DNA of 34,950 nt from a virus (lineage: Duplodnaviria > Caudoviricetes), in IMG/VR virus record IMGVR_UViG_3300044940_000186, positions 1 through 34,950 of that record. One strand, written 5' to 3'. Positions 1-34,360 of the stretch are shown here, in pieces. Under the pieces are notes generated by a model, which was not told where the DNA came from, did not search any database, and saw nothing but the letters and a program-made list of their open reading frames with translations. Position numbers and translations under genes: made by a program. The first letter of the stretch is position 1. Each line of letters opens with the position of its first letter.

Positions 1-148
1 AAATATCAGGGGGAATAAAAAAGGGGGGGGGTAGGAAATTCGGAAACCAATATTTTTTTCAAGGTAATAAATGTCAAAATGAAATTAAAAAAACAAAAAT
101 ACCTAGGCGATAAATAAAAAAATAATTTAAATATCTATTGACTTAAGG
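1..148. repeat. Terminal direct repeat, left copy (circular overlap or terminal redundancy)
   Basis: 1..148 matches 34802..34950 except G9 here versus G10 in the right copy. Confidence 0.95.
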
Positions 149-167
149 GTATCACTAGAAGTATAAC
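138..167 (+). promoter_or_regulatory. Sigma70-type early promoter
   Basis: TTGACT (138-143), 18 bp, TATAAC (162-167), with an AT-rich upstream region. It precedes the AAAGGAA RBS and ATG at 229. Confidence 0.7.
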
Positions 168-228: not shown

Positions 229-651
229 ATGACCGACATAAAAGTAAAAATAGTAGAAGCAATTCCAGCGGGGAGATATCCATGTGTTCTTGAAGAAGTA
301 AAAAACATAACAGAGAAAGGATATCAAAGTGAAGAAATGGAAGAGCGAATCAGATTTACCTTCAAAGTAAAAGTAAAAAATTCTGTTAGAGAATTTATTT
401 ACAAGTGCTCTCCGACCGTCTCCCCAAAATCAAATTTATCTAAGATAACCGATGCTATGCACCCAGACGGTGCTGTACCGCTAGAAGCTAAAAGAGATGA
501 AAATCTTTTTGCAACTGAACTTGCTAAAATGATCGGCAAAAAATATCAGATTCAAATTGGAATCAACGAGAAAGGCTATAACGTATATGGCGGAATAGTC
601 CCACTAGAGCAAGCGTCTAAAGACGTAAGTACCGATGAAATACCATTTTAA
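229..651 (+). CDS. Putative single-stranded DNA-binding (OB-fold) protein
   Basis: 140 aa with an 'IPAGRY..V.E' start and beta-rich core like phage DUF669/SSB-like proteins. Acidic C-terminal tip 'STDEIPF' resembles the SSB C-terminal DDIPF. Good RBS. Confidence 0.6.
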   Translation: MTDIKVKIVEAIPAGRYPCVLEEVKNITEKGYQSEEMEERIRFTFKVKVKNSVREFIYKCSPTVSPKSNLSKITDAMHPDGAVPLEAKRDENLFATELAKMIGKKYQIQIGINEKGYNVYGGIVPLEQASKDVSTDEIPF

Positions 652-674
652 TACCTTATACCTAAATACCAAAA

Positions 675-770
675 TTTTAGTTGCCAGTTAAATTCCTTTT
701 TCTGGCAGTTAGTTGTAATCGACTCCTAGGAAAGACTAGGTGACAGCTCGGAAAGACGAGCACTTTTTTA
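675..770 (+). ncRNA. Putative structured small RNA (three stem-loops, anti-RBS segments, U-tract)
   Basis: Stem TGCCAG/CTGGCA with loop TTAAATTCCTTTTT, then CCTAG-GAAAGA-CTAGG, then GCTCG-GAAAGA-CGAGC followed by AC and T6. Complementary to early-gene leaders. Confidence 0.6.
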
Positions 771-780
771 AGGATTTTAT

Positions 781-1281
781 ATGCCATTTCTATCAGGAAT
801 TATCTTAGAGATTGAACAAACTAAAATTAGTAACTCCGGCAACTGGTACACAAAAGGAATACTAGAAGACTCAGATAAAGCCCTTCATGATTTTTGTATC
901 TTCTGGAAAGACGAGACTTGTATCAAAGAGTTTTTGAAATTCCAAAAAATTGACTTAGTCGGAAAGCGTGACAGAAAAGAAGGAAGCTTCTTAGCTAACT
1001 ATGTTCGTGACCCGAACGATAAATCAAGACGAAACCCATCAGCCACTCATCGGGCTGACGAAACTTACAGAGGAGAGGATGCTATCGATGGCAAGAAACC
1101 AATCGACTTTATATTAGACCAACTAGGGGCTACTAGAATAAATAATGAATTAAAGGCTAAATTCGGCTCCTATTCGTCTATCTTAGAAGGGGAGGGTGCT
1201 AGGCAAGAATATAAAAAGATGCTCTCACAGTGGTTAATTGAAGCAAAAGAAATTAAAGAATTCAAGGAGATGCCATTTTAA
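781..1281 (+). CDS. Hypothetical protein with N-terminal OB-fold-like domain
   Basis: N-terminus 'LSGIILEI..KISNSGNWY.KGILED....DFCIFW' resembles OB-fold nucleic-acid-binding domains. Ends in 'EMPF'. RBS AAGGA at ~770. Confidence 0.5.
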   Translation: MPFLSGIILEIEQTKISNSGNWYTKGILEDSDKALHDFCIFWKDETCIKEFLKFQKIDLVGKRDRKEGSFLANYVRDPNDKSRRNPSATHRADETYRGEDAIDGKKPIDFILDQLGATRINNELKAKFGSYSSILEGEGARQEYKKMLSQWLIEAKEIKEFKEMPF

Positions 1282-1532
1282 TGATGAAAAAAAATTACAA
1301 TAATCTAACTGAATTATATCGAGATTATTTAGAAGAGAATGAAACTTCGCCATATGCTCATAACGAAAAGCTATCATTTAACACAGGCTATAGATTAAAA
1401 AGAGGAGAAGTGGGACAGCGACTAAATATTGATACACTTCGACTTCTTTTTAACGAGATAGAAGACAAGCAATTAGTCTTAGAAACTATCTACAATCATG
1501 TCATGACCTATCAACAAAAAAAAGATGACTAA
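1281..1532 (+). CDS. Small protein, possible Cro/XRE-like HTH regulator
   Basis: 'LSFNTGYRLKRG...RLNIDTLRLL' resembles an XRE/Cro recognition helix. TAATG overlap with the upstream gene. Confidence 0.4.
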   Translation: MMKKNYNNLTELYRDYLEENETSPYAHNEKLSFNTGYRLKRGEVGQRLNIDTLRLLFNEIEDKQLVLETIYNHVMTYQQKKDD

Positions 1533-2121
1533 GTTTGAAACCGAATCTCACTTAACTGAAGAAGTCAAATACGCTGACAGGTTAAGGGAAGTTTGGTGGA
1601 TGTACAACTGGATCAAGGCATCGACATTTAGCAATATCGATTACTACGTTACAAGAAAAGAAGATGATGCCTGTATTGCTTATGCAGAACTAAAGAGCAG
1701 AAATTGTTTTTTTAGAACTTACAGAAGTTACATCATCTCAGCTAAAAAAATAGACAACATGCTAAAGATGATAAAGTATTCTGGTTATTACAAGTCAGAA
1801 GATAGCTTTGACTTATCCGAAACCATCGGACTAATCTTTATTAGATATTTAGATGGGGACTTCTATTACAAACTAACTTCTAAAGACTTTGAGCAACACA
1901 TAAAGCTTGGTTATGTAGTAAGGAAAATGGGAGGAAGAACCAAACAGACTAGAGCTAATGCAGTTAATGACATTGAAGAGATTTATCATATCGACACTAA
2001 CTTACTTAAACAAGTAGGAGATATGCAGATAGGGAAGAAAAATGGAATTTATAAACACTTACCAGAAAAAACATTAAAGGAAATATTAGATGGTAAAGAG
2101 CTTAAAAAAGATCTCATATAA
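1525..2121 (+). CDS. PD-(D/E)xK superfamily nuclease-like protein
   Basis: 'NIDYYV...IAYAELKSR' fits the (P)D...ExK catalytic signature. Confidence 0.55.
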   Translation: MTKFETESHLTEEVKYADRLREVWWMYNWIKASTFSNIDYYVTRKEDDACIAYAELKSRNCFFRTYRSYIISAKKIDNMLKMIKYSGYYKSEDSFDLSETIGLIFIRYLDGDFYYKLTSKDFEQHIKLGYVVRKMGGRTKQTRANAVNDIEEIYHIDTNLLKQVGDMQIGKKNGIYKHLPEKTLKEILDGKELKKDLI

Positions 2122-2584
2122 AAACAAAAGAGCAAGTGAGCATATTTTAAATAACTTCATCGATGGTTCTTCTAAGATGAGAGCCAAAAGAGCATTAGAC
2201 GCTGATAAGCTAGAAAAGATAGAAACAACAGAAGAAGCAACAAAGACAATTTTACAATACTGTGAAGCAAAAAAATTAAAATATGAAGCACTAGAAGACC
2301 AACGCTTAATCTACATAGATAAAGAAAATCTTTACTTCAAATCTCTAATGCTATGCGTAAGAAAAGAAAACGTGATAACGCAAAAAGAAGCTTTATTTTT
2401 TCTTGATATGTTTCAATCAAAACGATGTTTCCCGTTTTTTTGTAACTCAAGTTTAACGGCTGTAGACGTAATAAATAACTATTTAACTAATGGTTTTAGC
2501 CACTTAATCCCTAAATTAAAAAAAGAAAAAATTTTATACTTTAATAAAAAAACACTTGACTTTATGATACCGAAACCGATATAA
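2090..2584 (+). CDS. Hypothetical protein, possibly a degenerate VRR-NUC fold
   Basis: The C-terminal half 'SLMLCVRK...TQKEALFFLDMFQSKRCFPFFCNS...AVDVINNYL' resembles the VRR-NUC layout without a clear PD/ExK motif. Confidence 0.4.
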   Translation: MVKSLKKISYKNKRASEHILNNFIDGSSKMRAKRALDADKLEKIETTEEATKTILQYCEAKKLKYEALEDQRLIYIDKENLYFKSLMLCVRKENVITQKEALFFLDMFQSKRCFPFFCNSSLTAVDVINNYLTNGFSHLIPKLKKEKILYFNKKTLDFMIPKPI

Positions 2585-2585
2585 C
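2556..2585 (+). promoter_or_regulatory. Sigma70-type early promoter
   Basis: TTGACT (2556-2561), 18 bp, TATAAC (2580-2585). Same hexamers and spacing as the promoter at 138. Confidence 0.7.
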
Positions 2586-2640
2586 TATTGTGACATCGAA
2601 ATGATGTTAAGTTTACAACTAATAAAAAGGAATAAATAAA

Positions 2641-2919
2641 ATGAGTAAAGTATATGACGCTTATATGGATACACTAGAGAACGATATGATTACTTTAATG
2701 CTTGAGCTTAAAGAGTCAATTCGTATCAAAGAAGATGAGCCAAGAACTTATCTAACACTAATCGAGTTAGCTAAAGCTTGTGGCAAGTTAGAAGCGGATG
2801 ACGTAATGGATGAGGCTCTTAGATACTCAAGAGAATATCTAACTGAAGAAGATATTGCAGAAGCTAAATCAATTTACAATCAAACCGTCGAAACTAAAAG
2901 ATGGAATGGGGGGTGTTAA
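2641..2919 (+). CDS. Hypothetical acidic early protein
   Basis: 92 aa ORF with an AAAAGGAA RBS, directly downstream of the promoter. Confidence 0.8.
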   Translation: MSKVYDAYMDTLENDMITLMLELKESIRIKEDEPRTYLTLIELAKACGKLEADDVMDEALRYSREYLTEEDIAEAKSIYNQTVETKRWNGGC

Positions 2920-2920
2920 G

Positions 2921-3088
2921 ATGAGTAAAATTTATGTAACAACTAACGATAAGTTTTTTCTTTCTTACGACAATGCAAGCATTGAAGAGATAGAGATTGG
3001 AAGTCATCCTGAAGAGATTCAGGAATGGGATATTCAAGACTATTTTTCGGAGATAGAAAAAATAAAACAAGCAAAAGAAAACAACTAA
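2921..3088 (+). CDS. Hypothetical early protein (55 aa; start revised from 2855)
   Basis: ATG at 2921 is preceded by GGGGGTG and lies 1 nt after the upstream stop. Confidence 0.65.
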   Translation: MSKIYVTTNDKFFLSYDNASIEEIEIGSHPEEIQEWDIQDYFSEIEKIKQAKENN

Positions 3089-3107
3089 CAAAAAAAGGAA
3101 TAATAAA

Positions 3108-3374
3108 ATGGGAACAAAACAAATAAAATATTGCGATATTTGTCACGCAACTAAACCAGAGCCAGAAGGTGGTTGGGAAACTGTAACAACTTTTCCAAAC
3201 AAAGAAGTGATAAGAGTGTTTGCAGATGGAAGCTTCAGAAAGTTTGACTATATATCTCTTGACTTGTGCGATCATTGTCGAGATATCGCACTAAGAGGGG
3301 TTGCTATTGAGGTACATGGGAATGACCTTTACAAGATTAACTTTGTTCATTCTCAAAAAGAAGGAGATTGCTAA
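3108..3374 (+). CDS. Small zinc-ribbon-like protein
   Basis: Two CxxC pairs (CDIC, CDHC) and an AAAGGAA RBS. Confidence 0.7.
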   Translation: MGTKQIKYCDICHATKPEPEGGWETVTTFPNKEVIRVFADGSFRKFDYISLDLCDHCRDIALRGVAIEVHGNDLYKINFVHSQKEGDC

Positions 3375-3375
3375 C

Positions 3376-3543
3376 ATGAATATCAAAACTCCCGCGTCAA
3401 AACAGATTGCAATAGCGATGACCCGTAAAATGTTTATTAAGTTTGAGGAGCTGTCAAAGGCTCCCAAACTGACACCAGAAGAATTAAAAGAATTAATTCG
3501 ACTGAGAAAAACACTAGCGGTGCTAAAGCAAGTTGAAGGTTAA
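3376..3543 (+). CDS. Hypothetical basic protein (start revised from 3301)
   Basis: AAGGAG at 3361 precedes ATG 3376, directly after the upstream stop. Confidence 0.65.
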   Translation: MNIKTPASKQIAIAMTRKMFIKFEELSKAPKLTPEELKELIRLRKTLAVLKQVEG

Positions 3544-3570
3544 TTTTATTTTTATAAAAGGTTATTTATC

Positions 3571-3810
3571 ATGGACGAACAATCAGAAAAACTATTAGAC
3601 GTATTAACAATAATTGGTATTGTAAGCTTTGGAGCGTACATACTCTTTATTACATCGGGCTGTATGCAGATTGTAGGAGCTGAGAGAATTAATGCTTGGG
3701 GCTTAGAAATCGAAAGCACAACAGGTTTTGAAGTATCAGCGGGTGTTATGCAGTACAACGGAGCTGATGAGCGAAAGACAATGAGCAAGGGAGTTAGAGA
3801 TGGAAGATAG
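3571..3810 (+). CDS. Putative membrane protein/lipoprotein
   Basis: Hydrophobic segment ending in a lipobox-like 'ITSG-C'. RBS AAAGG. Confidence 0.55.
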   Translation: MDEQSEKLLDVLTIIGIVSFGAYILFITSGCMQIVGAERINAWGLEIESTTGFEVSAGVMQYNGADERKTMSKGVRDGR

Positions 3811-4078
3811 TAAGAGCATTCACCCTATAATTGTTTTGCTTGCTATAGTAGGAGTTGTTTTCTTACTACTACTTGCCCGACTCTTTATTTTATCTGATTA
3901 CACTATTCAGTTTTCTAAGTTAGGTAGTGGACGGGTAACAGCTATCAATGCTCCTGACCCTGACGGGGTTGCTATGACTTTAAAGGTAGGGGAGCTTGAA
4001 TGCTTAAAAGCTAAAGAGTGTGAAATTAATGAGCATAATTTTATTAAGCTAACCCAAAAAGGGATTAATAAAAAATAA
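3800..4078 (+). CDS. Putative membrane-anchored protein
   Basis: N-terminal TM 'IIVLLAIVGVVFLLLLARLFIL'. Overlaps the upstream gene. Confidence 0.7.
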   Translation: MEDSKSIHPIIVLLAIVGVVFLLLLARLFILSDYTIQFSKLGSGRVTAINAPDPDGVAMTLKVGELECLKAKECEINEHNFIKLTQKGINKK

Positions 4079-4245
4079 TGGCTCACGTTGATAGAATCCT
4101 TCAGGCTCTCGAGTTTAGAAAAATCTTACTAGAGAGCCTCGAAGGGCTTGGAGAGAAGGAATTAGAAGAAAAATTAAAACAAAAAATTAGAGAATTAGAG
4201 GATAAGCAAAATGAAAAAAATAACATTGCCAGACATAACACCTGA
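4078..4245 (+). CDS. Small coiled-coil-like protein, 55 aa (absent from the ORF track)
   Basis: Translated by hand: MAHVDRILQALEFRKILLESLEGLGEKELEEKLKQKIRELEDKQNEKNNIARHNT*. TAATG coupling at 4076-4080. Fills the gap before 4211. Confidence 0.6.
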   Translation: MAHVDRILQALEFRKILLESLEGLGEKELEEKLKQKIRELEDKQNEKNNIARHNT

Positions 4246-5422
4246 GATGCAAGCAAAAGCACAGGATATTGTTAGATATGTTATTAAGATGCAATCAATG
4301 CCGACCGACCCAAAAATCGGACTTTTAGTAATATCTGAAATTTTAAAGTTATCAAAGCACAAAGAAATTAAACTTGAAGATAAAATTACGGGTGGGCTTG
4401 ATGATGGGCTTAATGCAATGCTTCATGATGGGCTTAATGATGAGCTTGATGCTGGGTTTCATCTTGAGCTTTATGCTGGGCTTGATGCTGGGCTTGATGC
4501 TGGGCTTAATACTGGGTTTCATCTTGAGCTTTATGCTGGGCTTGATGCTGGGCTTGATGCTGGGCTTTATACTGGGCTTTATGCTGGTCTTGATGCTGGG
4601 CTTTATGCTGGGCTTAAAGCTGGGCTTCATGAAGGACTTCGTGTTGGACTTAGTAACGATCTTAAAGAGAATAAAAAATTCAAACTTGAATATTGTGGTA
4701 TTTTCTGGTCATGGTTGCTTGCTCGATATTTGATAGCCTACAGCTGGGGAGTTCCGCTAGATATTAAAAAGCTAACTTTGCTGTGGGGATTTTGTAGGTA
4801 CGCTAGAATTGTTTTATCAACAGAGATTAATGATAAGATTATTCCCGTTATTGCTCCAGCTCCGAAGGTCAATTTTGTCGAAACGGGATTGACTTCAGGT
4901 TATATAAAATTGCCAATTTTCGAGTTAGAAGGTGAAGTCAAATTATTAAATGTTTCTATTCATTATAAGAATAACCGAAAACACAGAGAAGGTTTTCCTG
5001 CTGAAAAAATTGGAGACAAAAAGAGATGGTTTTTAAATGGTGTTCAAGTAGAGCAATGGTTAGCAGAAACGCCAGTAGATCAGTTGGACGCTAAAAAAAT
5101 ACTTGATCTTAAAAACGTAGATCAGAGAAGAGAAGGGCTTCGTCGACTTGGGATGGAAAGATTTGTAAATCAAGTCAAAGGAATAGTAATCGATAAAGAT
5201 TACACAACTAAAAGTAAGTACGAGTTACTAGCAATCAAGTTAGGGAATAAAGACGAGATTGTAAAATTCTTGAAAATGAATAACCCTTCAGTTGAGGCAA
5301 TACATATTGAATGTGTACATGAAGATTGCTTAACTGTACAAGATGCGATTAACTGGAGAGCTTACGGAGACGAAGCATTAACTAATAAAAATTTAAGGTG
5401 GGAACCTTCAGAATTAACTTAA
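4211..5422 (+). CDS. DUF6745-like protein with tetrapeptide repeat region
   Basis: GLxA-type repeats followed by 'HREGFPA...WFLNGVQV...NVDQRREGLRRLG...LKMNNPS...HIECV...AINW', the layout of phage DUF6745 proteins. Confidence 0.7.
   Translation: MKKITLPDITPEMQAKAQDIVRYVIKMQSMPTDPKIGLLVISEILKLSKHKEIKLEDKITGGLDDGLNAMLHDGLNDELDAGFHLELYAGLDAGLDAGLNTGFHLELYAGLDAGLDAGLYTGLYAGLDAGLYAGLKAGLHEGLRVGLSNDLKENKKFKLEYCGIFWSWLLARYLIAYSWGVPLDIKKLTLLWGFCRYARIVLSTEINDKIIPVIAPAPKVNFVETGLTSGYIKLPIFELEGEVKLLNVSIHYKNNRKHREGFPAEKIGDKKRWFLNGVQVEQWLAETPVDQLDAKKILDLKNVDQRREGLRRLGMERFVNQVKGIVIDKDYTTKSKYELLAIKLGNKDEIVKFLKMNNPSVEAIHIECVHEDCLTVQDAINWRAYGDEALTNKNLRWEPSELT
4394..4657 (+). repeat. Degenerate 12-bp tandem repeat (GGGCTTGATGCT-like, ~22 units) with a 60-bp higher-order duplication
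   Basis: Encodes GLDD-GLNA-...-GLDA-GLYA-...-GLSN. The block at ~4453 repeats at ~4513. Confidence 0.9.
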
Positions 5423-5441
5423 TATTTAGGAGAAAGAAAAA

Positions 5442-5771
5442 ATGAAAAAACAATTGCAACAAGGTGATGTGATAATTGAAACAAAAACTATTCCAGCAGA
5501 AGCTAGGGAAGTTGATAGAAAAGGAGTTGTAGCAGAAGGAGAAGGTCATCATGAACATGCTTTTTCTGACCCTTCGGTTGTTCAATTCTTTGAGTTTAAC
5601 GATAAAACTTACATTAGAGTTTTAGAAGAGACCGAACTACTACATAGAACTAAAGGAACTAAATCTCATGGGGAACATAGAGGGTTGAAGCTTTTAAAAG
5701 GAGAGTATGAGTATAGACCAGTTATTGAAAGGGATTGGTTATCGAAACTAAATCGCAAGGTAATTGATTAA
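5442..5771 (+). CDS. Conserved phage hypothetical His-rich protein (partner of the DUF6745-like gene)
   Basis: Motifs 'QQGDV', 'AEGEGHHEH', 'HGEH...GEYEY...ERD'. RBS AGGAG. Confidence 0.75.
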   Translation: MKKQLQQGDVIIETKTIPAEAREVDRKGVVAEGEGHHEHAFSDPSVVQFFEFNDKTYIRVLEETELLHRTKGTKSHGEHRGLKLLKGEYEYRPVIERDWLSKLNRKVID

Positions 5772-5782
5772 CGGTATACGGC

Positions 5783-6415
5783 ATGATTAAAGAATTAACT
5801 CTCACCATCCTACTAGTAACCGGCAGTCCTTTATCGGTACCGACTCGAGACGCTAGAACTATAGTAAATTATTCTTTAAAGAATTGCGTAAACTCAAAGC
5901 AAAAAGAATTTACAATAAAATACAAAAAAGTGAAGTGGGTAAAGAGAAGGGCTTCATCAATCAAACGAGCTAATACTAATACACAAAGATTCGACAAATG
6001 GGATTTTTATATCTTCCATCAAGTCAGAAGAAAAAAATTAAAAAGGAATACAAATTTAATTTACGTTTTTGATATCTCAGATCAAGATGGTGGATTGCGG
6101 GGAGGACTAAGCTATCTTTGCCAAGGGTGGAAAAGCGAAGCGGAAGCTATCGTGTGGGGGAGTCACTCAAGACTAGATGTAACTTTTATTGATAGGCCGT
6201 TAGACGTTAACGCATCTTTATTCTGTCACGAGATAGGGCACGCAACAGGAAGAGGGCATTGCGGAGATATTAACAACGTAATGTTTCCCTACTACTATTA
6301 CACGGGTAATATTCCTTTAGCCGAAAAACCGATGTGCGATAGCTTTGGACTAAAGCAGTGTAAAAGAAATCCTGATAATTTTTCACCTTTTGGATGTGGT
6401 TTTAAACATGGATAA
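5783..6415 (+). CDS. Exported metzincin zinc metallopeptidase (matrixin/M10-like)
   Basis: HEIGHATGRGH matches HExxHxxGxxH, with a Met-turn 'VMFP', an N-terminal signal-like segment and several Cys. Confidence 0.75.
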   Translation: MIKELTLTILLVTGSPLSVPTRDARTIVNYSLKNCVNSKQKEFTIKYKKVKWVKRRASSIKRANTNTQRFDKWDFYIFHQVRRKKLKRNTNLIYVFDISDQDGGLRGGLSYLCQGWKSEAEAIVWGSHSRLDVTFIDRPLDVNASLFCHEIGHATGRGHCGDINNVMFPYYYYTGNIPLAEKPMCDSFGLKQCKRNPDNFSPFGCGFKHG

Positions 6416-6425
6416 GATTATAGAA

Positions 6426-6794
6426 TTAGCTCTTTTGGTTGGCTTTATTTTTTATATTCTTTTGCCTTGTCTTTTGCTTCTTGGAAAGATAGTGATCATG
6501 GCACTTGGCTTTGGGTATGTTGCCATTAATAATTTGTAGAGCATCCTCGAAGGTCTCAATTATATAAACGGGGCTACCCTTCCATTCTTCTATGAATTTT
6601 ATCTGACTATCCTGAAGATCAGGATTATTAGCCGTTGGGTTCTTGATTTCAAAAATATAAGTCTTGTGTTGAAAGCCAACTACAATATCAAGAATTCCGT
6701 TTACAATCCAAACCGAAGCCCCTATTTTCCTAAGATTATTTACTATCTCAGATTGATTCTTATCAACACTAGATTTAAAATTCCTCCAGCCCAT
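6426..6794 (-). CDS. VRR-NUC family nuclease
   Basis: 'VDKNQSEIV..LRKIGASV...GILDIVVG...IFEIKNP...LQDSQIKFIEEWKG' is a typical stand-alone VRR-NUC. Confidence 0.85.
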   Translation of the reverse strand: MGWRNFKSSVDKNQSEIVNNLRKIGASVWIVNGILDIVVGFQHKTYIFEIKNPTANNPDLQDSQIKFIEEWKGSPVYIIETFEDALQIINGNIPKAKCHDHYLSKKQKTRQKNIKNKANQKS

Positions 6795-9700
6795 TAGAAT
6801 CTATAGACTAACCTTTTAGTACCATCAGCTAAAGACTCCTCCCCTTTAATAGCAATGTCATTATTAAGAGCTGCCATTTCAATTTTCTCACTTCCTATCA
6901 TGTCTCTTAGAAGTTTAGCCTCTCTTAATCTTCTTGGCATTAACTCTGGATTCTTTGACCAGTTTCTAGGATTCTCTAGTCTATCAGCAATAACATCCCA
7001 CCTTCCAGATAAAGCAGCTCTCCATATCTTAGGAGCTGCCGACTTAAGATTAGCTCCTAAGTTATATCCTAGTGATAATAGAACGGCTCTAGCAGGTGCA
7101 GGGATATCCTTAATCTCTACTCCTGTTTCTGCTTTGTATGCGTTATTTATCTTATCTACAGTTTCTTGTTTAAAAGCTTTTGATAAGTTTAGTGCTTCCT
7201 CTTCTGATAATTCTAAAGGATTGTTCTTAAGTACGTCCTTAGCAGAAGAGCCTCTTTTGCCGATATAAGGGGCAATTTTAGCAATAACATCCTCCTTAAT
7301 TCCTAGATCTCTTAATTGAGAAATAGAAGTATCTGATAAGTTAACGCCTTCTCCTATCGTAATCCTCTCTCCGTCTCTTGCAGTGTCTAAATATGCCTTA
7401 GTTCTAAAGCCCTCTTGTTGGGATAGAAACTCATCTTCCAGTTCCTTCTTAGATTCTCCACCTAAGAACTTATAACTAAAAGTAGGTAAAGGCTCATCAG
7501 CTCTTATGGCTTTAATAGCCTTGGCTTTTTTAATAGGGTCAGATGATAATCTCTTATCTAGCAATGCCTCTGCTCTAACCTTTTCTTCGGGATCAACAAT
7601 GGCTCCATTAATTAAAGAAGTAAATCCGGGAATAGGACTTGGTTCAAATAACTCTGGCTTAGCCCTAGCTAGTAACATAACTCCACGTTTCTGATCTTCT
7701 TCAGTAGCCGACATTAGAGCAGAGATTTCTTGAGCCTCTTGCTCTGGTATCCCTAACATCGCTAGGTCTTTCCCAACCATGTACTGCATAACAGCGGTAG
7801 TATTACGAGCAATTTTTTCAGTTTGCTGTTCATCTTGAACTCCCTCCTCTACTTGGTCAGGTATATTCGTTTGTTGAAGATAAAACTGATTAGTATCCAC
7901 TCCATCAACTAATGGGTCTGCAATAGGCTCTGAGGATAGAATATCCGCCTGTGGAGCTAAAATGTCTGTGACTCCACCTAATTGCATAGCCTCCTCTACT
8001 GGGTTAACAAGAGACGCCCCTGCTGCTCTTGAAGCTGAGGTTAGTGTGCCCCCTTCGAGTTTGTTTACCCCAGCTATCCCTCTAAGGACATCAAGTCCTA
8101 TGTCTTTATTTGCAGTATAGCTAATGGCTTCATCCGCAGGTGATCTTGTAGCTCCCGGGAAAAGTGATTGCAAAATTCCCCTAGTTCCGCTCCTAACCGC
8201 CCCAGAGACAGGAGCCATTGCTTGGTCAATAATAGAAGGCCCTACGACCCCTTTAGCAACTTTTGTAGTTAACCTCTTTGTTTCAGATGCTTGAGTTTTT
8301 AACCCTCCCTGTAAGGCATCTTCCATTTGAAATAAAACTCTAATATTGTCGGTGGCTTCATCATACTTCGCAGCATTATACTTTATTCCTCGAAAAACCC
8401 CAGTAGAAGAAGATATAGCATTATTAAGGGATGCCTTAACCGCATCATCAACAGAAGTGGCTATCTCATCTAATATAGCAGCTAGCTGATTAGCTCTTCC
8501 AGTTAAAACTGAGTCTCCCATGTTAACTCGCTCAAAGCTTCTAATGGAGTTTCTTAATCCCCGAATAGTTACCCCTGCCTCCATCGCCTCATCAACAGGG
8601 ATTGAATTCTTTAATTTCTCAATAGCCGTTAACGACTCGTCTCCAACTTTAAATTGTTTTAGACTTTCCATTAGTGATTGTAACTGGTCTAAAGCACTAT
8701 CGAGGGTTTCTCTTGTTATCCTCATTTGAGATGGAATAGCTGCTCCTGTTTTATTTGCAATACTAATCGTTACATCATCGACTATAGGAGCAACTCTAGC
8801 TCCTGTCTTACTAGCAACCCTAGCTACGTCTTTTAATCTTTCCGCTGCTATTTTTGACCTAAGTTTAACTACCTTTTCTATCGTTTCTCCGACGGTTTTA
8901 GTGTTTCTAAGAGAAGGTGAATTTAATAGCTCAACAGCTCTTTGCCCAACTTTAGTAACGCCATCTCTTAAGGTTTTTGATAACCCCTCAATATTTCCAC
9001 CAAGATAACCAGCAACTTCAGAGGTATCTCCGCTCTTTAAGTTCTTAGCTGTCTGCTTTAATAGAGAAGTTGCTCTCTTTTCTGATCCGTATGCTTTGAC
9101 TAAGTTAGAAGCTGGTTTAGGGGTAATTCCGCTCAAAGAGGACAAACCTGCCTCAACGGCTCCTTCTAATGTCGGCATCTCTCCTTTTAGAGTAGTAGAT
9201 AACAGGTTTTCCTTTCTATAATCAGAAAGAGTATCAGAAAAATCCTTCTCTGATTTTCCTGTAAGGACATCAACTCCAGCCGCCGCAATATCTCCAAGTT
9301 CAGGAGCACCAAGAGCCGCAGCTGTCATAGCAAAAGGTCTTCCAACTGGAGTTAATCCAGCTAACCCTCCAGCCGCACTCCCTACTGCCCTAGCCCCCAC
9401 AGAAAGAGCTTCCCTACCTCTATATTTAAGGTCTTCCAATGTTGCTTTAATAGGGGAAGAGTCCATTGCGGATTCATAATCTTTAAATAGCCTAGAGTCT
9501 TCTATTTTAGATATTTGACTTGATAGGTCAGACTGAGTTCCGATGCTTTCTTGTAAATTTAAAACCTTTGCAGTTAAGTCTAAAGGAATATCATCAGGAG
9601 TACTAGCATTTAACACTGACAACAACTCATCCTCTGAAAGATAGTCATAAGGATTTAAACTTGGTGAGCTTACTGTATCTGTCATTGTTTCCTTACCCAT
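6794..9700 (-). CDS. Large internal virion (ejection) protein with C-terminal lysozyme (pesticin/T4-lysozyme-like) domain
   Basis: 968 aa, Ala/Gly-rich and helical. C-terminal 'QQEGFRTKAYLD....ITIGEGVNL...LLSLGYNLG...RRLREA'. Last of the internal-protein cluster. Confidence 0.8.
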   Translation of the reverse strand: MGKETMTDTVSSPSLNPYDYLSEDELLSVLNASTPDDIPLDLTAKVLNLQESIGTQSDLSSQISKIEDSRLFKDYESAMDSSPIKATLEDLKYRGREALSVGARAVGSAAGGLAGLTPVGRPFAMTAAALGAPELGDIAAAGVDVLTGKSEKDFSDTLSDYRKENLLSTTLKGEMPTLEGAVEAGLSSLSGITPKPASNLVKAYGSEKRATSLLKQTAKNLKSGDTSEVAGYLGGNIEGLSKTLRDGVTKVGQRAVELLNSPSLRNTKTVGETIEKVVKLRSKIAAERLKDVARVASKTGARVAPIVDDVTISIANKTGAAIPSQMRITRETLDSALDQLQSLMESLKQFKVGDESLTAIEKLKNSIPVDEAMEAGVTIRGLRNSIRSFERVNMGDSVLTGRANQLAAILDEIATSVDDAVKASLNNAISSSTGVFRGIKYNAAKYDEATDNIRVLFQMEDALQGGLKTQASETKRLTTKVAKGVVGPSIIDQAMAPVSGAVRSGTRGILQSLFPGATRSPADEAISYTANKDIGLDVLRGIAGVNKLEGGTLTSASRAAGASLVNPVEEAMQLGGVTDILAPQADILSSEPIADPLVDGVDTNQFYLQQTNIPDQVEEGVQDEQQTEKIARNTTAVMQYMVGKDLAMLGIPEQEAQEISALMSATEEDQKRGVMLLARAKPELFEPSPIPGFTSLINGAIVDPEEKVRAEALLDKRLSSDPIKKAKAIKAIRADEPLPTFSYKFLGGESKKELEDEFLSQQEGFRTKAYLDTARDGERITIGEGVNLSDTSISQLRDLGIKEDVIAKIAPYIGKRGSSAKDVLKNNPLELSEEEALNLSKAFKQETVDKINNAYKAETGVEIKDIPAPARAVLLSLGYNLGANLKSAAPKIWRAALSGRWDVIADRLENPRNWSKNPELMPRRLREAKLLRDMIGSEKIEMAALNNDIAIKGEESLADGTKRLVYRF

Positions 9701-12458: not shown

Positions 12459-15421
12459 TAGAAACTATTACCTCCTCCACCACCACCTGAGCTAACAGGT
12501 GCTCCTCTTGGTGCAACACCAGCTCTTTTGCCATCAGTTCCAAATTGAGCATCATATATAATCTCTATTCCACTAATAAAGATATTCTCATTAATACCCT
12601 CGTTTCTTACCTCAACGGCAATGCTTCTAGCTCTCTGGTCTCTAATATTTAATTCAACAAACGGTAAAGTATCAAAAATTGCAGTAATAGTACTGTGCTT
12701 AGCTTGAGGATAAGAGCTATTAGTTACCCAATCCATATAACAAGATATTTGAATAGATTCCCCTATTGCAGTTGTGTCAACTGGGACATAAGCAGAACCA
12801 GTTAAATAATCAGCAGGGACTCTCCAGATAAGAATTTTCTGGAACAACTTAAACATTGATGGCTCCCCAAGGGAGTCAAAGCTAGTAAACAATCTAAAAG
12901 GAATAGCAAGCCCTGTATCATTAAATGGAAGAGCATCGGTTCTCTTTTTTAATCTAATAGCATTCCCTGACCCTAGCAGTGTTTTAAAATTATTATAGGT
13001 AATAACAGAAGGAGAGTTCGGCTCTTTAGTCCCGCATCGAGATATCCCATAGAGCTGACCCTTATGCATAACCATTCCACCGGTTAAGTCTAAATTAGAA
13101 GTACCAGTGTTCCACTGTAACCACTTCCCTCTTTCATAGTTTAGAACGAAAGTCTCTGAGGCTCTTCCAAGAGAATAAGCTCCACTTTGAACTATAGTTG
13201 GAATACTTAAAATATACTGAGAATTTATATAATCATTAATCCCTGTTGCCCTTTGATAGTCTAGATCCGATCTTCCTCTAATAACTGGAGAGATATTACC
13301 AACAGACTTAGAGTCAAGAACGCCCCCTAGAACGCCAACCACCCCATTAGACCCCATACCCATAATAACGCCATCCACCTTAGCAATGCTCCGCTGAGAA
13401 GATATTCCATAATCGCCCTCCTTAATAACTCGAACAGAAACCGCCTTAGTCGCTAAATCCCCATCCAGTGAATAATAAGCCCTATCCTTAAAAAGAGCCA
13501 AAGAATTGTCATTGTCAGATACTCCTGCTGTTAAGTTACCAACTATCGTAGAAGGAACATCTATGGAGTTAAAAGCCCTAGGAAAATACTCAACTCCATC
13601 AATACCTGACCAATACACAGTATTAGGCTCGATGTTACTTCCTAGTGAAACTAAATTACCCTGATGAGAGCATATCTTACCAATAATAGGAGTAGGTTCA
13701 TGCTCTTCTCCGGGTAATGGCTCTATATACTCTATAGTTAAATTTGAATCTGAAGTTGTATCAACCGTAACAACTAACTGTGTTTTGTAAATCGGATGTT
13801 CAGATTGCTTGTAAAATATCTGTCCAAATTGTTTAGTTCTATAGATTCTAATGAAAAACCCTGTACTTGCCCTCTGTCCAGCGACAACAGATAGGCTATT
13901 ATCTATTGTTATAGTTGAAGGGCTTACTGTAAAGTCAATGTCAAGAATCTTTCTGCTAACAGTAGGCGAAGTGTAAATAGTGTCTCCTATTGTTACGTTA
14001 GGGTAGGTACCAGTAAGTGCTCCTCTAACATTCAATACTGTCCCAGTTTGAGTTGTTGTAAAGACTACTCCCCTTACGTCATAAAGCTCTAATCCACAAT
14101 CTAACCAAGCAACTGGCAGTGGATTTATTGTTATTGTAGTACCTCCTCCAGTCCCTCCGGTATTATTTGTTTGCACAGTTGAAGGAACAGACTCCCACTC
14201 AACCCCATTATCATCGTAATAAATATAAGTCCAGAAGTAAGAAAAATTTCCATTAGCATTATGTGGAGAGATGCTCGAAGGGGAAAAACCAGAAATAGTG
14301 TTAGGACGTGGAAGCCCAGCTCTATATGTGGCTTCTTTATCATAGGATAGTAGTTGACCCGGAGGGTTTACTTCTGCGTTAACAAAGCCCGGACTCTGAT
14401 AATTATCAAAATAAGGAAGAGCAAAGTAGTTTTTATCATTAAGGTTAAGTCCCTGTACTGAGGGGATTTGACCAGTTGAAATTCCACTGTAGTTCTCAAG
14501 AAGACCAGTATATCCAAATAGCACACTTTCAAAAATTCCAGCAAAGGTAGAAGAGGGGAGAGTGATAACATTATCTTGTCGATCTGCATGAATACCAGAA
14601 GGGACACCATCCCAAAAATAAAATGGAATGATATGTGAAGCTGAGGGAGAGCCAGCCGTGTCAAAATTAGCAGAAGATAAAAACCCAACGCAAGAACCAA
14701 TTGGATCATTTTCATCGTAGGTACATTTTATATTTCTAACTAATTCAATATCCCCAGAAACATCTCTTGAGGCTAAAAAATATTCCAAGAATCCTGTTTC
14801 TCTATTGTATGCAGTATACTTTCTTCCTACTTGCATTGTCCCAATATTAGCATTGAATTCTAAAGTTAGAGGTCCAATACCGGATGGCATATTTGTCCCA
14901 GTAGCTGTTAAGACGGTTCCGGGCTTACTTAACGAGACAATGTAAAACCCAGTTCCCAGCAAACCAAGACACAAGTCGCCAATAGTCCCAATAGGATAAT
15001 TCTGGCTAGATTCCGACTCGGTATAAGTATAAGTATACTCAGGTAAAATACCTCCATTAGGATAAAACAAGATAGAGATGTCTTCTCCGGAAGTTTGCTT
15101 CTCTATGGAAAAAGTTCCAGAGGTTCTACTTATGGTAAGGTTACACTCGGTAAATCTAAAAAGGTGACATCCAAACCCTAGTAATTCCTCTTTTGTCTCT
15201 CCAGTGGTCTTGTCTAAATAAACATAATTATCTATCCCTAAATGAAGACCAACTCCACCAATAACCTCAAAGCCAGCACGCTTTTGAATTCCCGAAGTTT
15301 CTACATAAGTAGCATTTTGAGCAGCTTTTAGAAACTCAGCAGGTTTTTTTAAGTCGGTAGTAGTAAAATCTAATCCAACAAAATCGTCCTCTATTATTTT
15401 CAAGCTACTCTTTTGTCCCAC
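12458..15421 (-). CDS. Tail nozzle/DNA-stabilisation protein (T7 gp12/P22 gp10-like)
   Basis: 987 aa with GTG start. Motifs 'FVGLD...AQNA...GIQKRAG', 'NTVYWSGIDGVEYFP', 'YGISSQRSI'. Follows the adaptor gene. Confidence 0.75.
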   Translation of the reverse strand: MGQKSSLKIIEDDFVGLDFTTTDLKKPAEFLKAAQNATYVETSGIQKRAGFEVIGGVGLHLGIDNYVYLDKTTGETKEELLGFGCHLFRFTECNLTISRTSGTFSIEKQTSGEDISILFYPNGGILPEYTYTYTESESSQNYPIGTIGDLCLGLLGTGFYIVSLSKPGTVLTATGTNMPSGIGPLTLEFNANIGTMQVGRKYTAYNRETGFLEYFLASRDVSGDIELVRNIKCTYDENDPIGSCVGFLSSANFDTAGSPSASHIIPFYFWDGVPSGIHADRQDNVITLPSSTFAGIFESVLFGYTGLLENYSGISTGQIPSVQGLNLNDKNYFALPYFDNYQSPGFVNAEVNPPGQLLSYDKEATYRAGLPRPNTISGFSPSSISPHNANGNFSYFWTYIYYDDNGVEWESVPSTVQTNNTGGTGGGTTITINPLPVAWLDCGLELYDVRGVVFTTTQTGTVLNVRGALTGTYPNVTIGDTIYTSPTVSRKILDIDFTVSPSTITIDNSLSVVAGQRASTGFFIRIYRTKQFGQIFYKQSEHPIYKTQLVVTVDTTSDSNLTIEYIEPLPGEEHEPTPIIGKICSHQGNLVSLGSNIEPNTVYWSGIDGVEYFPRAFNSIDVPSTIVGNLTAGVSDNDNSLALFKDRAYYSLDGDLATKAVSVRVIKEGDYGISSQRSIAKVDGVIMGMGSNGVVGVLGGVLDSKSVGNISPVIRGRSDLDYQRATGINDYINSQYILSIPTIVQSGAYSLGRASETFVLNYERGKWLQWNTGTSNLDLTGGMVMHKGQLYGISRCGTKEPNSPSVITYNNFKTLLGSGNAIRLKKRTDALPFNDTGLAIPFRLFTSFDSLGEPSMFKLFQKILIWRVPADYLTGSAYVPVDTTAIGESIQISCYMDWVTNSSYPQAKHSTITAIFDTLPFVELNIRDQRARSIAVEVRNEGINENIFISGIEIIYDAQFGTDGKRAGVAPRGAPVSSGGGGGGNSF

Positions 15422-22580: not shown

Positions 22581-22646
22581 ATCTTTGCCCTAAAAAAAGT
22601 TAAACATTCACCGTTTAAACTTTCTCTAAGACTTTCCTAGATAGGT

Positions 22647-23930
22647 CTAAACAGTAGTTGGTAAATCTGATTCCATAATCTGCTTTAGTAGATCATCTAC
22701 CAAGCTAGGTTGAGGAACCGGCTTTCCTTGTTTACTTCCTTTAGGTGCGAGAGCCTTAGCGACTGAAGTGGCTGGCTTCTGGCTTGCCAAAGAAGTAACT
22801 TTCTTTGGTGATGGTTTTCCTAACACCTCTGAAAGTATTTCTTTTAGCTCTGTTGCATCACTCCAAACTCCCGCTTTTTTGAGTTTAAACATCTCAGCGA
22901 GAAAATCTTGTTTTGCTTCTTTGCTAAAAGCATTAAATTTCTGAGAGTTTACTTTACTAGCTACACCCTCAATCTCAACATATACTGGAATCGCAGAAAG
23001 CCTGTCAAGAACAATATCTCTTATTTGCTCTTCATTGGCATTGTTCGGGAATATCTCCGGCTGGTTGTCAATTAGGAAGTTAGAAGCGTCCCTAAACTCA
23101 TCTAAGGTAAAGCCTCGTGCTAAAACAAGGTTTTCCGTGTCTGCCCAAAATTGCTGTTGTTTTATAGAAACCTCTTTCTTTTGAGCTTCTTTTAACTCTC
23201 TTTGCTTATATTGCTCTAGCTCAATAGCATCAAGTAGTTGCTTTCGACCTTCAGGTGAAGTCTCAAGCCATTCTCTTACAGTCTTGTCTGCTTGGACTAA
23301 AAAATTTGCTACCTGCTCTTTAGCATTTAAGCCTTTAAGATTAGCTATTGCAATAATAGCCCCTAGTGGGTTTTTGTTTTCTAACTGATAAACTACATTT
23401 TGAAGCTCTGAAGCCTTTTCTTGAGCTTCCTTAACAAACTGAGCTTTTTCCGCTTCTAAGGATTTTTTTTGTCGTCCTAACTCTGAGAACTTATTTGCCC
23501 AAACAGTTCTTCCGTTATAGTCAGTAACTAAATCTTTAACAGAAACTATCTTAGTCTTTCCGTCTACTTTGATTTTAATAGTAGCAGTTTCGGGAACCTC
23601 GACTTCCTCCCCGTTAACCTTCATGTTAAACGTAGGAACATCCTCCTCTTCTGAAGTTTGTTCTACTTCCTCTTCGGTCGCCTCTTCTTCTGCTGTCTCC
23701 TCGGTTACTTCCTCCTCTGATTCTGAGGGTTCGTTGTCAACTTCTTCGTTCTGTTCTTCTTCTTGCTCCACTTCACTATCTGAAGGTTCTTCAGGTAATG
23801 GAGTCTCTGCTTCCAGTTGTTGTCCATTTGCACTATCAAAAATATCGTTAACATGAGAAAAGGGATCGTCATAAGACATTACATCAGCATTTCCCATTGG
23901 TAGGGCGGTTGCGTTATCAGGTTGTGTCAT
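22647..23930 (-). CDS. Capsid scaffolding protein
   Basis: Very acidic N-terminus, 'KVNGEEVEV...KVDGKTKIVSVKDL..DY', and a coiled coil. Between portal and capsid. Confidence 0.8.
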   Translation of the reverse strand: MTQPDNATALPMGNADVMSYDDPFSHVNDIFDSANGQQLEAETPLPEEPSDSEVEQEEEQNEEVDNEPSESEEEVTEETAEEEATEEEVEQTSEEEDVPTFNMKVNGEEVEVPETATIKIKVDGKTKIVSVKDLVTDYNGRTVWANKFSELGRQKKSLEAEKAQFVKEAQEKASELQNVVYQLENKNPLGAIIAIANLKGLNAKEQVANFLVQADKTVREWLETSPEGRKQLLDAIELEQYKQRELKEAQKKEVSIKQQQFWADTENLVLARGFTLDEFRDASNFLIDNQPEIFPNNANEEQIRDIVLDRLSAIPVYVEIEGVASKVNSQKFNAFSKEAKQDFLAEMFKLKKAGVWSDATELKEILSEVLGKPSPKKVTSLASQKPATSVAKALAPKGSKQGKPVPQPSLVDDLLKQIMESDLPTTV

Positions 23931-33265: not shown

Positions 33266-33348
33266 CAAATAAATATTCTCACTACGGGGCTATTTGGTGC
33301 CCTAAATCCAGTCCCCTAGCTTTCTAACACCAATCCCTGAATCGATTG

Positions 33349-33460
33349 CCCAACCAATTGCCTAACCGACAACCAAACCGGTAGCCTAACCAATCCCCTA
33401 ATTGATTAACCAAACCGGTAACCCAACCGGTAGCCTAACTGATCAACCCAACCTAACCAA
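33349..33460. repeat. C/A-rich degenerate repeat with three AACCGGTA cores
   Basis: AACCGGTA at 33376, 33413 and 33425. AACCGGTAGCCTAAC twice and AACCAAACCGGTA twice. Confidence 0.8.
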
Positions 33461-33726
33461 AGCTCGGTATACCATGCAAATATTTTCGTGTGTGTTATCA
33501 ATAGTTTAACTATAGCATTTACGCAACTCAGTTGCATTAGTGATTTTACACTGAAAACAGAACGGTTATTCTAAAGATTTATTCTTTAATTATATTAGAT
33601 AGTTAAGTCGGTTATCAACAGGTGTTTTAAAAAAAGTGACCTTGACACAGGTTTTAGAGTTGACGCACACTAATTGAATAAAATCTATATATATTATAAT
33701 ATATATTTTATCCTTATTTTTTTTTC

Positions 33727-33790
33727 TCTATCTGTCTATCTGTCTATCTGTCTATCTGTCTATCTGTCTGTGTGTGTGTGTGTGTGTGTG
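33727..33790. repeat. Compound microsatellite (TCTATCTG)5-TC-(TG)11
   Basis: Read directly from the sequence. Confidence 0.95.
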
Positions 33791-33861
33791 TTATTGAGTA
33801 ACAGATCGATCTGATCGCTCGCGTGCTACGTCGTAGCTGACGCCGACTCTGCACGCTCGCT

Positions 33862-33920
33862 AGTATATGCTATATAATATAGTATATATATATATATTAT
33901 ATAATATAGTATATATATAA
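33862..33920. repeat. (TA)n-rich tract with duplicated TATATAATATAGTATATATA
   Basis: Read directly from the sequence. Confidence 0.85.
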
Positions 33921-33980: not shown

Positions 33981-34009
33981 TTGACGTTCTATCGATAGTG
34001 ATATAATAT
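33981..34009 (+). promoter_or_regulatory. Near-consensus sigma70 promoter
   Basis: TTGACG (33981-33986), 17 bp, TATAAT (34004-34009), with A-tracts upstream. Confidence 0.8.
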
Positions 34010-34073
34010 AATTGTATTGCTAGCTAACACTAGTGATGATTAACAACTAACAACAAAAAAAAAGGAAAAAAAA

Positions 34074-34301
34074 ATGGCTATAATAAAAATCACACACAAA
34101 AAGCAAGCGTATTTTTTTGATTATCAGGGCGGGTATATACGGCTAGAGGATCACGAAAACGGGAAAATTGGCACGCTGGGTTATCAGATCTGTGAGGGTG
34201 GGAAACTCACTGGGGCAACGCTATCAGCAGATAATTTAGAGCACGCAAAAAAAATCTGTAGATCGTGGGTCGTAAAACACGCGAAACTAAACGAATTTTA
34301 G
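34074..34301 (+). CDS. Hypothetical early protein (monocistronic)
   Basis: 75 aa with its own promoter, AAAGGAA RBS and downstream terminator. Confidence 0.8.
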   Translation: MAIIKITHKKQAYFFDYQGGYIRLEDHENGKIGTLGYQICEGGKLTGATLSADNLEHAKKICRSWVVKHAKLNEF

Positions 34302-34324
34302 ACAACTAACAACTAACAACTAAC

Positions 34325-34360
34325 AAAAAAAAGAGGGGGGGGCTTTGTGCCCCTCTTTTA
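34325..34360 (+). terminator. Rho-independent terminator, possibly bidirectional
   Basis: AAAAGAGGGG (34329-38) pairs with CCCCTCTTTT (34350-59), with an A-tract before and a T-tract after. Confidence 0.7.

Follow-up and report, generated by a model that had tools for sequence, protein, structure and literature searches.

The window analyzed here is the whole 34.95-kb virus record (34,950 nucleotides) of an uncultured phage with 38% G+C, and its first 150 bases are repeated as its last 150. Family searches of the ORFs showed that the minus-strand genes include those for terminase, portal, capsid, tail-related proteins, and lysozymes, and that the plus-strand genes (34074 and then 229 to 6415) are small, with no assigned function for most of them. 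A pattern scan returned three plus-strand promoter-like sites of one pattern, at 33981 (P1), 138 (P2), and 2556 (P3); a fourth match, on the minus strand at 13938, lies inside a gene. Each predicted early transcript opens with a small hairpin and then an A-rich open leader (174-190, 2592-2609, and 34018-34034). Nearly all of the record is contained in four sequencing runs labelled as hot-spring or microbial-mat metagenomes, which may be its source, and no RNA run containing it was found among the listed sequencing runs. Four DNA runs with a low share of the record were compared with positions 300-1300, and their coverage excludes 677-720.

The element that concerns us lies in the 129-nt gap between genes 229 and 781, beginning 26 nt past the stop codon of gene 229, and is made of two modules, an anti-leader hairpin at 677-720 followed by two GGAAAGAC hairpins, with a U run at the end. 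The features of this region and the predicted promoters are as follows:

138..167, plus strand: predicted promoter P2 (TTGACT-N18-TATAAC), from the pattern scan; likely source of the RNA proposed below
229..651, plus strand: gene 229, putative single-stranded-DNA-binding protein (phrog_378, E 0.008; homologue P0002, E 0.0024; all weak)
677..712, plus strand: anti-leader hairpin, six Watson-Crick pairs (682-687/702-707) and five more (677-681/708-712), three of these G-U
688..701, plus strand: loop, in which 692-701 (ATTCCTTTTT) complements the Shine-Dalgarno block AAAAAGGAAT and the apex UUCC (693-696) is predicted to be unpaired
708..718, plus strand: 3′ guide segment (GTTAGTTGTAA), which complements the upstream tag TTACAACTAAC and is partly masked by competing pairings
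720..762, plus strand: GAC-stem-GGAAAGAC-stem units in a tandem pair, forming an RNA module that is portable among phages
746..769, plus strand: second GGAAAGAC unit and U run, terminator-like by match to the terminator consensus only; likely 3′ end of the RNA
770..783, plus strand: ribosome-binding site (RBS) and start of gene 781; weak cis pairing with the loop possible (-6.8 kcal/mol)
2556-2585, plus strand: predicted promoter P3; first gene downstream is 2641
33981-34009, plus strand: predicted promoter P1; first gene downstream is 34074

Gene 229 likely encodes a single-stranded-DNA-binding protein (SSB), as suggested by the weak PHROG hits, the acidic DEIPF end of its product, and a structure model of moderate confidence (pLDDT 64) whose nearest structures were PrgE and RPA (best E 3.7e-3); the comparison of the model with structures gave no match at E ≤ 0.001.

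A sequence-only reading of this locus had put forward 675-770 as a candidate antisense small RNA, and the strings it quoted are all present where it placed them (arms 682-687/702-707; 692-701; 708-718; 677-683; 2613-2633; 3081-3101; 34043-34067; 210-222). The segment 660-775 has a predicted fold of -30.6 kcal/mol (z -2.83), equalled by 1 of 200 shuffles. Both modules fold preferentially on the plus strand, and the 677-720 hairpin is more stable there than on the minus strand (-11.1 against -8.8) because the five-pair extension includes three G-U pairs. The UUCC apex of the loop is predicted to be open, but the segment 3′ of the stem, which the sequence-only reading took to be free, is not: 711-715 is predicted to pair with 677-681 (three G-U pairs) or with 720-724. 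The second TTAGTTG that had been noted is indeed present at 677-683 but is best read as the wobble partner of the 3′ segment, a masking arm that the full pairs of a true target could displace. Of the segment put forward, 677-720 is anti-leader, but 720-762 is a separate and widespread module. No described family had been recognized, and Rfam covariance models (4,227 families) likewise gave no match at E ≤ 1 for the whole window or at E ≤ 10 for 600-850.

The GGAAAGAC double unit is found in 36 viral contigs spanning 28-66% G+C, and single units occur in cultured phages of many hosts, chiefly between genes. The stem cells of 25 distinct double units hold 146 Watson-Crick, 24 G-U, 3 A-C, and 27 other combinations. 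Because a top-1% anti-leader window lies upstream of the double unit at just 2 of the 25 distinct loci (of 36), both of them plain anti-SD, the module is portable and stands outside the guide, and the same count ruled out the use of GGAAAGAC units as a marker for anti-leader RNAs. These numbers, along with a tRNA gene within 300 nt of 8 of the 25 distinct units, would suit an explanation in which the locus is a signal only, the units serving for termination, processing, or protein docking and the tag being recognized by the ribosome or a protein instead of an RNA. Such a signal accounts for 720-769 but not for the 57-base complement to three leaders at 692-718 described below, and we consider this explanation improbable.

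At five other loci (L040, L042, L045, L046, and L047), a pyrimidine tract sits directly before the double hairpin and after a tRNA-Ser gene, and in three of them it includes the anti-SD-like CACCTCCT. The 33 bases of 731-763 also sit between two CRISPR repeats in a contig of run X5, and the spacer read on the minus strand has the flank AAG; a search of genome contigs with this spacer gave 0 matches. The repeat and PAM look like those of a type I-E system, and the spacer points to a host that targeted this phage.

The pattern CAA[CA]TAA.{0,12}AAAGGA has four matches in the genome, three on the plus strand over early start codons and one on the minus strand at 694-715, inside the hairpin. When windows were scored by how well two collinear blocks of Watson-Crick pairs matched the 44 leaders, the element ranked first of 17,400 (20+19+18=57), followed at ranks 2-5 by the motif copies' own reverse strands. 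A score of 57 was reached anywhere, on either strand, in 2 of 299 block-dinucleotide-shuffled genomes, and a third-best score of 18 in 3 of 299. The feature is thus non-random and statistically well supported, in agreement with the proposal that it complements the RBS leaders of early genes (34074, 2641, and 3108). The matched bases in the three leaders number 9-10 in the RBS block and 9-11 in the upstream block, counted on the sequence. The pairing energy of loop plus flank over the 44 leaders was -21.7 kcal/mol for 34074, -21.6 for 3108, -20.3 for 2641, and -16.9 for 4078, with a median of -9.0, and none of 150 letter-shuffled guides attained the third- or fourth-best leader energy. The sites are:

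34043..34076, plus strand: target leader and start of gene 34074 (pattern, two-block score, -21.7 kcal/mol), first gene past P1
2613..2643, plus strand: target leader and start of gene 2641 (pattern, two-block score, -20.3 kcal/mol), first gene past P3
3081..3110, plus strand: target leader and start of gene 3108 (pattern, two-block score, -21.6 kcal/mol), internal in the P3 operon
4046..4080, plus strand: leader of gene 4078, likely a fourth target (-16.9 kcal/mol, rank 4 of 44), with a tag variant that would pair through G-U
34302..34360, plus strand: three tandem ACAACTA tag copies and then a terminator-like hairpin, 3′ of the gene 34074 stop; possibly an extra landing site or sponge

Antisense action against several early RBSs, with a C4-like design of loop and flank, remains the best reading, but the set of targets differs from the one first listed, which had missed the 4078 leader and had included the site of gene 229 (210-222) as a weaker target. 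We excluded gene 229 because its site pairs with the 3′ segment at just -2.2 kcal/mol, and it falls outside the best 12 of 44 leaders. The 34074 and 3108 leaders are predicted to be largely unpaired, and that of 2641 partly so. Separately, the 5′ arm and loop (677-701) can pair with the SD and ATGGCAAC at the starts of the late genes 10953 and 11961; these were third and fifth in one ranking but within the null range, and were not accepted as targets.

Plain energies gave a less favorable picture: in an approximate genome-wide duplex scan with G-U allowed, the 34074 leader was 26th, the 2641 leader 33rd, and 3108 outside the best 44. Similarly, the element was outside the best 8 in an energy scan of 1,309 non-coding windows. 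Such scans are dominated by G-U-rich duplexes at GC-rich sites, so the element does not stand out in them. With the full fold of 652-780 taken into account, the net gain was -11.2 kcal/mol for 34074, -7.6 for 3108, and -6.5 for 2641, with two to six non-target leaders preceding 3108 and 2641; the net gain drops as the RNA is lengthened.

The tag itself is a generic phage ribosome-binding leader, as 54 of 120 fetched matches to ACAACTAA-N0-8-AAAAAGGAA head an ORF, compared with 560 of 11,900 random positions. Leaders that share it therefore require no regulator, and the feature that demands explanation is the single reverse copy, split exactly by the stem arm. One explanation is that this copy is the start of a minus-strand gene, real or decayed (a 27-codon frame with a CTG start, antisense to the end of ssb), or an inverted, non-regulatory copy of a leader. 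The minus strand does carry the full leader pattern, a 27-residue frame opens at 687, and the motif is generic. However, CTG is poor as a start and would lie within the stem, no phage-type promoter is directed into the frame, the 6 nt between the blocks exactly complement 682-687, and the wobble extension exists on the plus strand alone; we find such an origin very unlikely.

We propose that the ssb message would pair through its 3′ end with early RBSs and shut them down as infection proceeds, a reading to which we assign a probability of roughly 55%. The element lies on the plus strand at the end of the ssb gene, in the operon downstream of P2, and not in the first early transcript, from which the sequence-only reading had derived its RNA; it would belong to the ssb (DNA-metabolism) transcript instead. 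Beyond the complementarity, we infer each step of what follows. Transcription from P2 would yield the RNA as the 3′ part of the ssb message, with its end near 769, and its active form could be the whole message or a 3′ fragment of roughly 95 nt, released by a cut in the AU-rich sequence preceding 677. First contact would be made by the exposed UUCC apex with GGAA of an unstructured leader, the tag would next replace the G-U pairs at 708-712, and the 6-bp stem would then open, leaving about 20 bp to cover the RBS. The stem would have to open because 2641 and 3108 leave just 0-2 nt between their target blocks. The four putative targets all sit in the P1 or P3 transcripts, whose genes are small and have no assigned function; the P2 operon, which would make the RNA, contains none of them. 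With no good target within that operon, accumulation of the ssb message would act as an RNA timer that lowers the small early genes once DNA metabolism starts. If this is true, a single RNA that shuts several early genes in separate transcripts would let small phages that have no obvious repressor or sigma factor time their infection. Given that leaders with this tag are common among phages, early genes of unrelated co-infecting phages might be silenced by the RNA as well.

The loop could also act in cis. In such a two-way switch it would hold the RBS of gene 781 and so keep the DNA-metabolism genes beyond it silent; binding of early messages to the hairpin would then free the RBS. Nine base pairs with one mismatch can form between the loop (688-701) and 770-779 (-6.8 kcal/mol), and this pairing would involve the 5′ side of the loop, which none of the three main targets requires. 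Similar energies are nevertheless obtained at any AAGGA site (-6.7 for genes 229 and 2090), and a terminator-like run separates the loop from the RBS of gene 781. We hold the switch to be unlikely, and it can coexist with repression of early leaders by the ssb message.

Repression by the ssb message would resemble the C4 RNA of P1 and P7 (RF01695), in which, according to the available text of PMC5320573, b′ covers the RBS, a′ pairs upstream and gives specificity, and the RNA comes from a longer transcript. Here too, in sequence only, one block covers the RBS and another lies upstream. C4, however, has three stem-loops with a′ and b′ in the loops, whereas a row of hairpins is predicted here with the second segment in a partly paired flank, and C4 sites lie in an immunity operon, whereas here three or four leaders lie in other transcripts and the 44 ORFs, most of them matching no family, gave no sign of lysogeny genes. 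The element would work like P1 C4 and yet is not a member of C4. In the case of P4 CI, the available text of PMC4825925 describes a processed RNA that pairs with the flanking seqA and seqC in its own transcript and causes termination. The likeness is that of a processed phage RNA with more than one pairing site, although processing is only proposed here; the flanking leaders fail (gene 229 at -2.2, and gene 781 by the loop only, at -6.8), and the sites overlap RBSs.

The bipartite logic of C4 (PMC5320573, in its available text) and the presence of capsid relatives on contigs in 5 genome bins could be taken to favor an immunity RNA of the C4/CI type, one that keeps early genes silent in a lysogenic or carrier state and blocks superinfecting relatives. 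Action against superinfecting relatives had been suggested by the sequence-only reading, and we found nothing in its support: there was no match to an integrase, repressor, or antirepressor in 44 ORFs or in 21 ORFs, a weak negative given that most early ORFs, and most of the 44, match no family. The replication operon is not among the targets. The 5 bins fall into five unrelated groups, which looks more like binned phage contigs than prophages. We judge an immunity role quite unlikely.

In searches for relatives of the phage, queries with the SSB gave 2 distant loci, the capsid 24 loci at 34-42% identity, the nuclease 1 locus, and the genome bins 5 loci, the capsid relatives being those on contigs within the five unrelated bins. 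The query with gene 781 turned up 3 loci, all from metagenomes and none viral. In L028 and L030 the 781 homologue is immediately preceded by coding sequence, and L029 begins too near to judge. The element was absent from all 11 distant related records or loci examined with the detector, and a DNA pattern of the full architecture found nothing among viral contigs (0 matches). A close relative, at 59-70% protein identity, is a 15,740-base contig (encoding P0002, P0004, and P0010) known here from its proteins.

P22 sar and lambda OOP are cis-encoded and fully complementary to their targets, and the element here differs from them in being encoded elsewhere and in matching several leaders in two blocks. 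In the available text of the 2025 review PMC12197685, both are phage RNAs that repress phage messages by pairing, one message each; together with C4 and CI, each phage antisense RNA described there as acting on phage genes controls one gene or operon, mostly in the lysis-lysogeny decision, and none is directed at an early leader that several genes share. The available texts of PMC2864571 and PMC5737381 describe c4, c4-a1b1, and c4-2. Literature searches brought up no paper on this RNA, on the GGAAAGAC module, or on a multi-leader phage antisense RNA; the supplements of PMC2864571 and PMC5737381 may bear on the matter. The element is a variant of a known antisense principle, and what is notable is chiefly the class as a whole.

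A better test case than the 677-720 hairpin is found in the G006 phage family, which has just one weak terminase match to this phage and a tag of the same kind. There, a 12-bp hairpin with a large pyrimidine loop that complements early-gene RBSs and start codons (L154:15688-15743; loci L204-L283 in relatives) lies right after the gene that follows the Erf gene in 80 of 80 loci, retained from 117 relatives, and 12 of 12 positions pair in 79 of them. The complement of its invariant loop core has 7 distinct sites in 589 kb, 6 of which are over start codons 5-6 kb upstream. When 22 of the 42 distinct variants were aligned, 94.3% of cells were paired and both partners had changed in 6 of the 12 pairs; the covariation score was equalled by 0 of 500 shuffles, a control that is inflated by the relatedness of the sequences. 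A loop variant in 52 of the 80 loci breaks one tag pair and is uncompensated, as the tags read ACTAAC in 7 of 7 cases in 5 such loci. The hairpin had no match near the gathering score in Rfam. The gene after Erf may be SSB-like, as judged from position only, and no homology to gene 229 was detectable. A second hairpin of G006 (L154:9950-10000) scored 47, within the null range, and was not accepted.

A further parallel is offered by the Cluster K phages, for which the available text of PMC3203893 describes a 13-bp SAS found at many gene starts and, in four phages, a single reverse copy that is left unexplained; the binder of the SAS (RNA or protein) is left open, and the word 'antisense' is absent from the main text. 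The stretch of phage Anaya that we fetched has 16 forward copies and 1 reverse, the latter in the gp96-gp97 gap (L285:31855-31900), where a long hairpin is predicted on the transcribed strand with this copy in its loop, and the stretch of phage Pixie fetched has no reverse copy. The two systems are alike in having an asymmetric tag at several non-structural starts and a lone reverse copy that is not at a start (3 forward and 1 reverse here); they differ in that sequence and host are unrelated, and the leaders here carry another tag, not the 13-bp consensus. Unrelated phages might have repeatedly evolved an RNA-only timer, in which a shared leader tag is silenced by one reverse hairpin copy on a later transcript, and this would explain the lone reverse SAS of Cluster K; we put the idea forward tentatively and with less than even confidence. 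The question left from 2011, what recognizes the Cluster K SAS and why a lone copy is reversed, thereby becomes testable in a cultured phage.

Several other features of the record were observed. Upstream of P2, 34381-34807 is non-coding and holds repeat units of ~190 bp (two full and part of a third), possibly an origin or packaging region, and the non-coding stretch 33330-33920 contains repeats with a 12-bp period, an 8-bp tandem run, a GT run, and AT palindromes. In gene 4211, a short GLDA/GLYA peptide coded by 12-bp units is repeated over 4390-4640. On the minus strand, 6794-9700 encodes a 968-aa protein with a Pesticin/lysozyme-like domain at its C-terminus, likely a virion lysin, which has 40% identity over 490 residues to a protein in L029, and the leader of the capsid gene (22598-22666) contains a hairpin with the loop variant GGAAAGTC.
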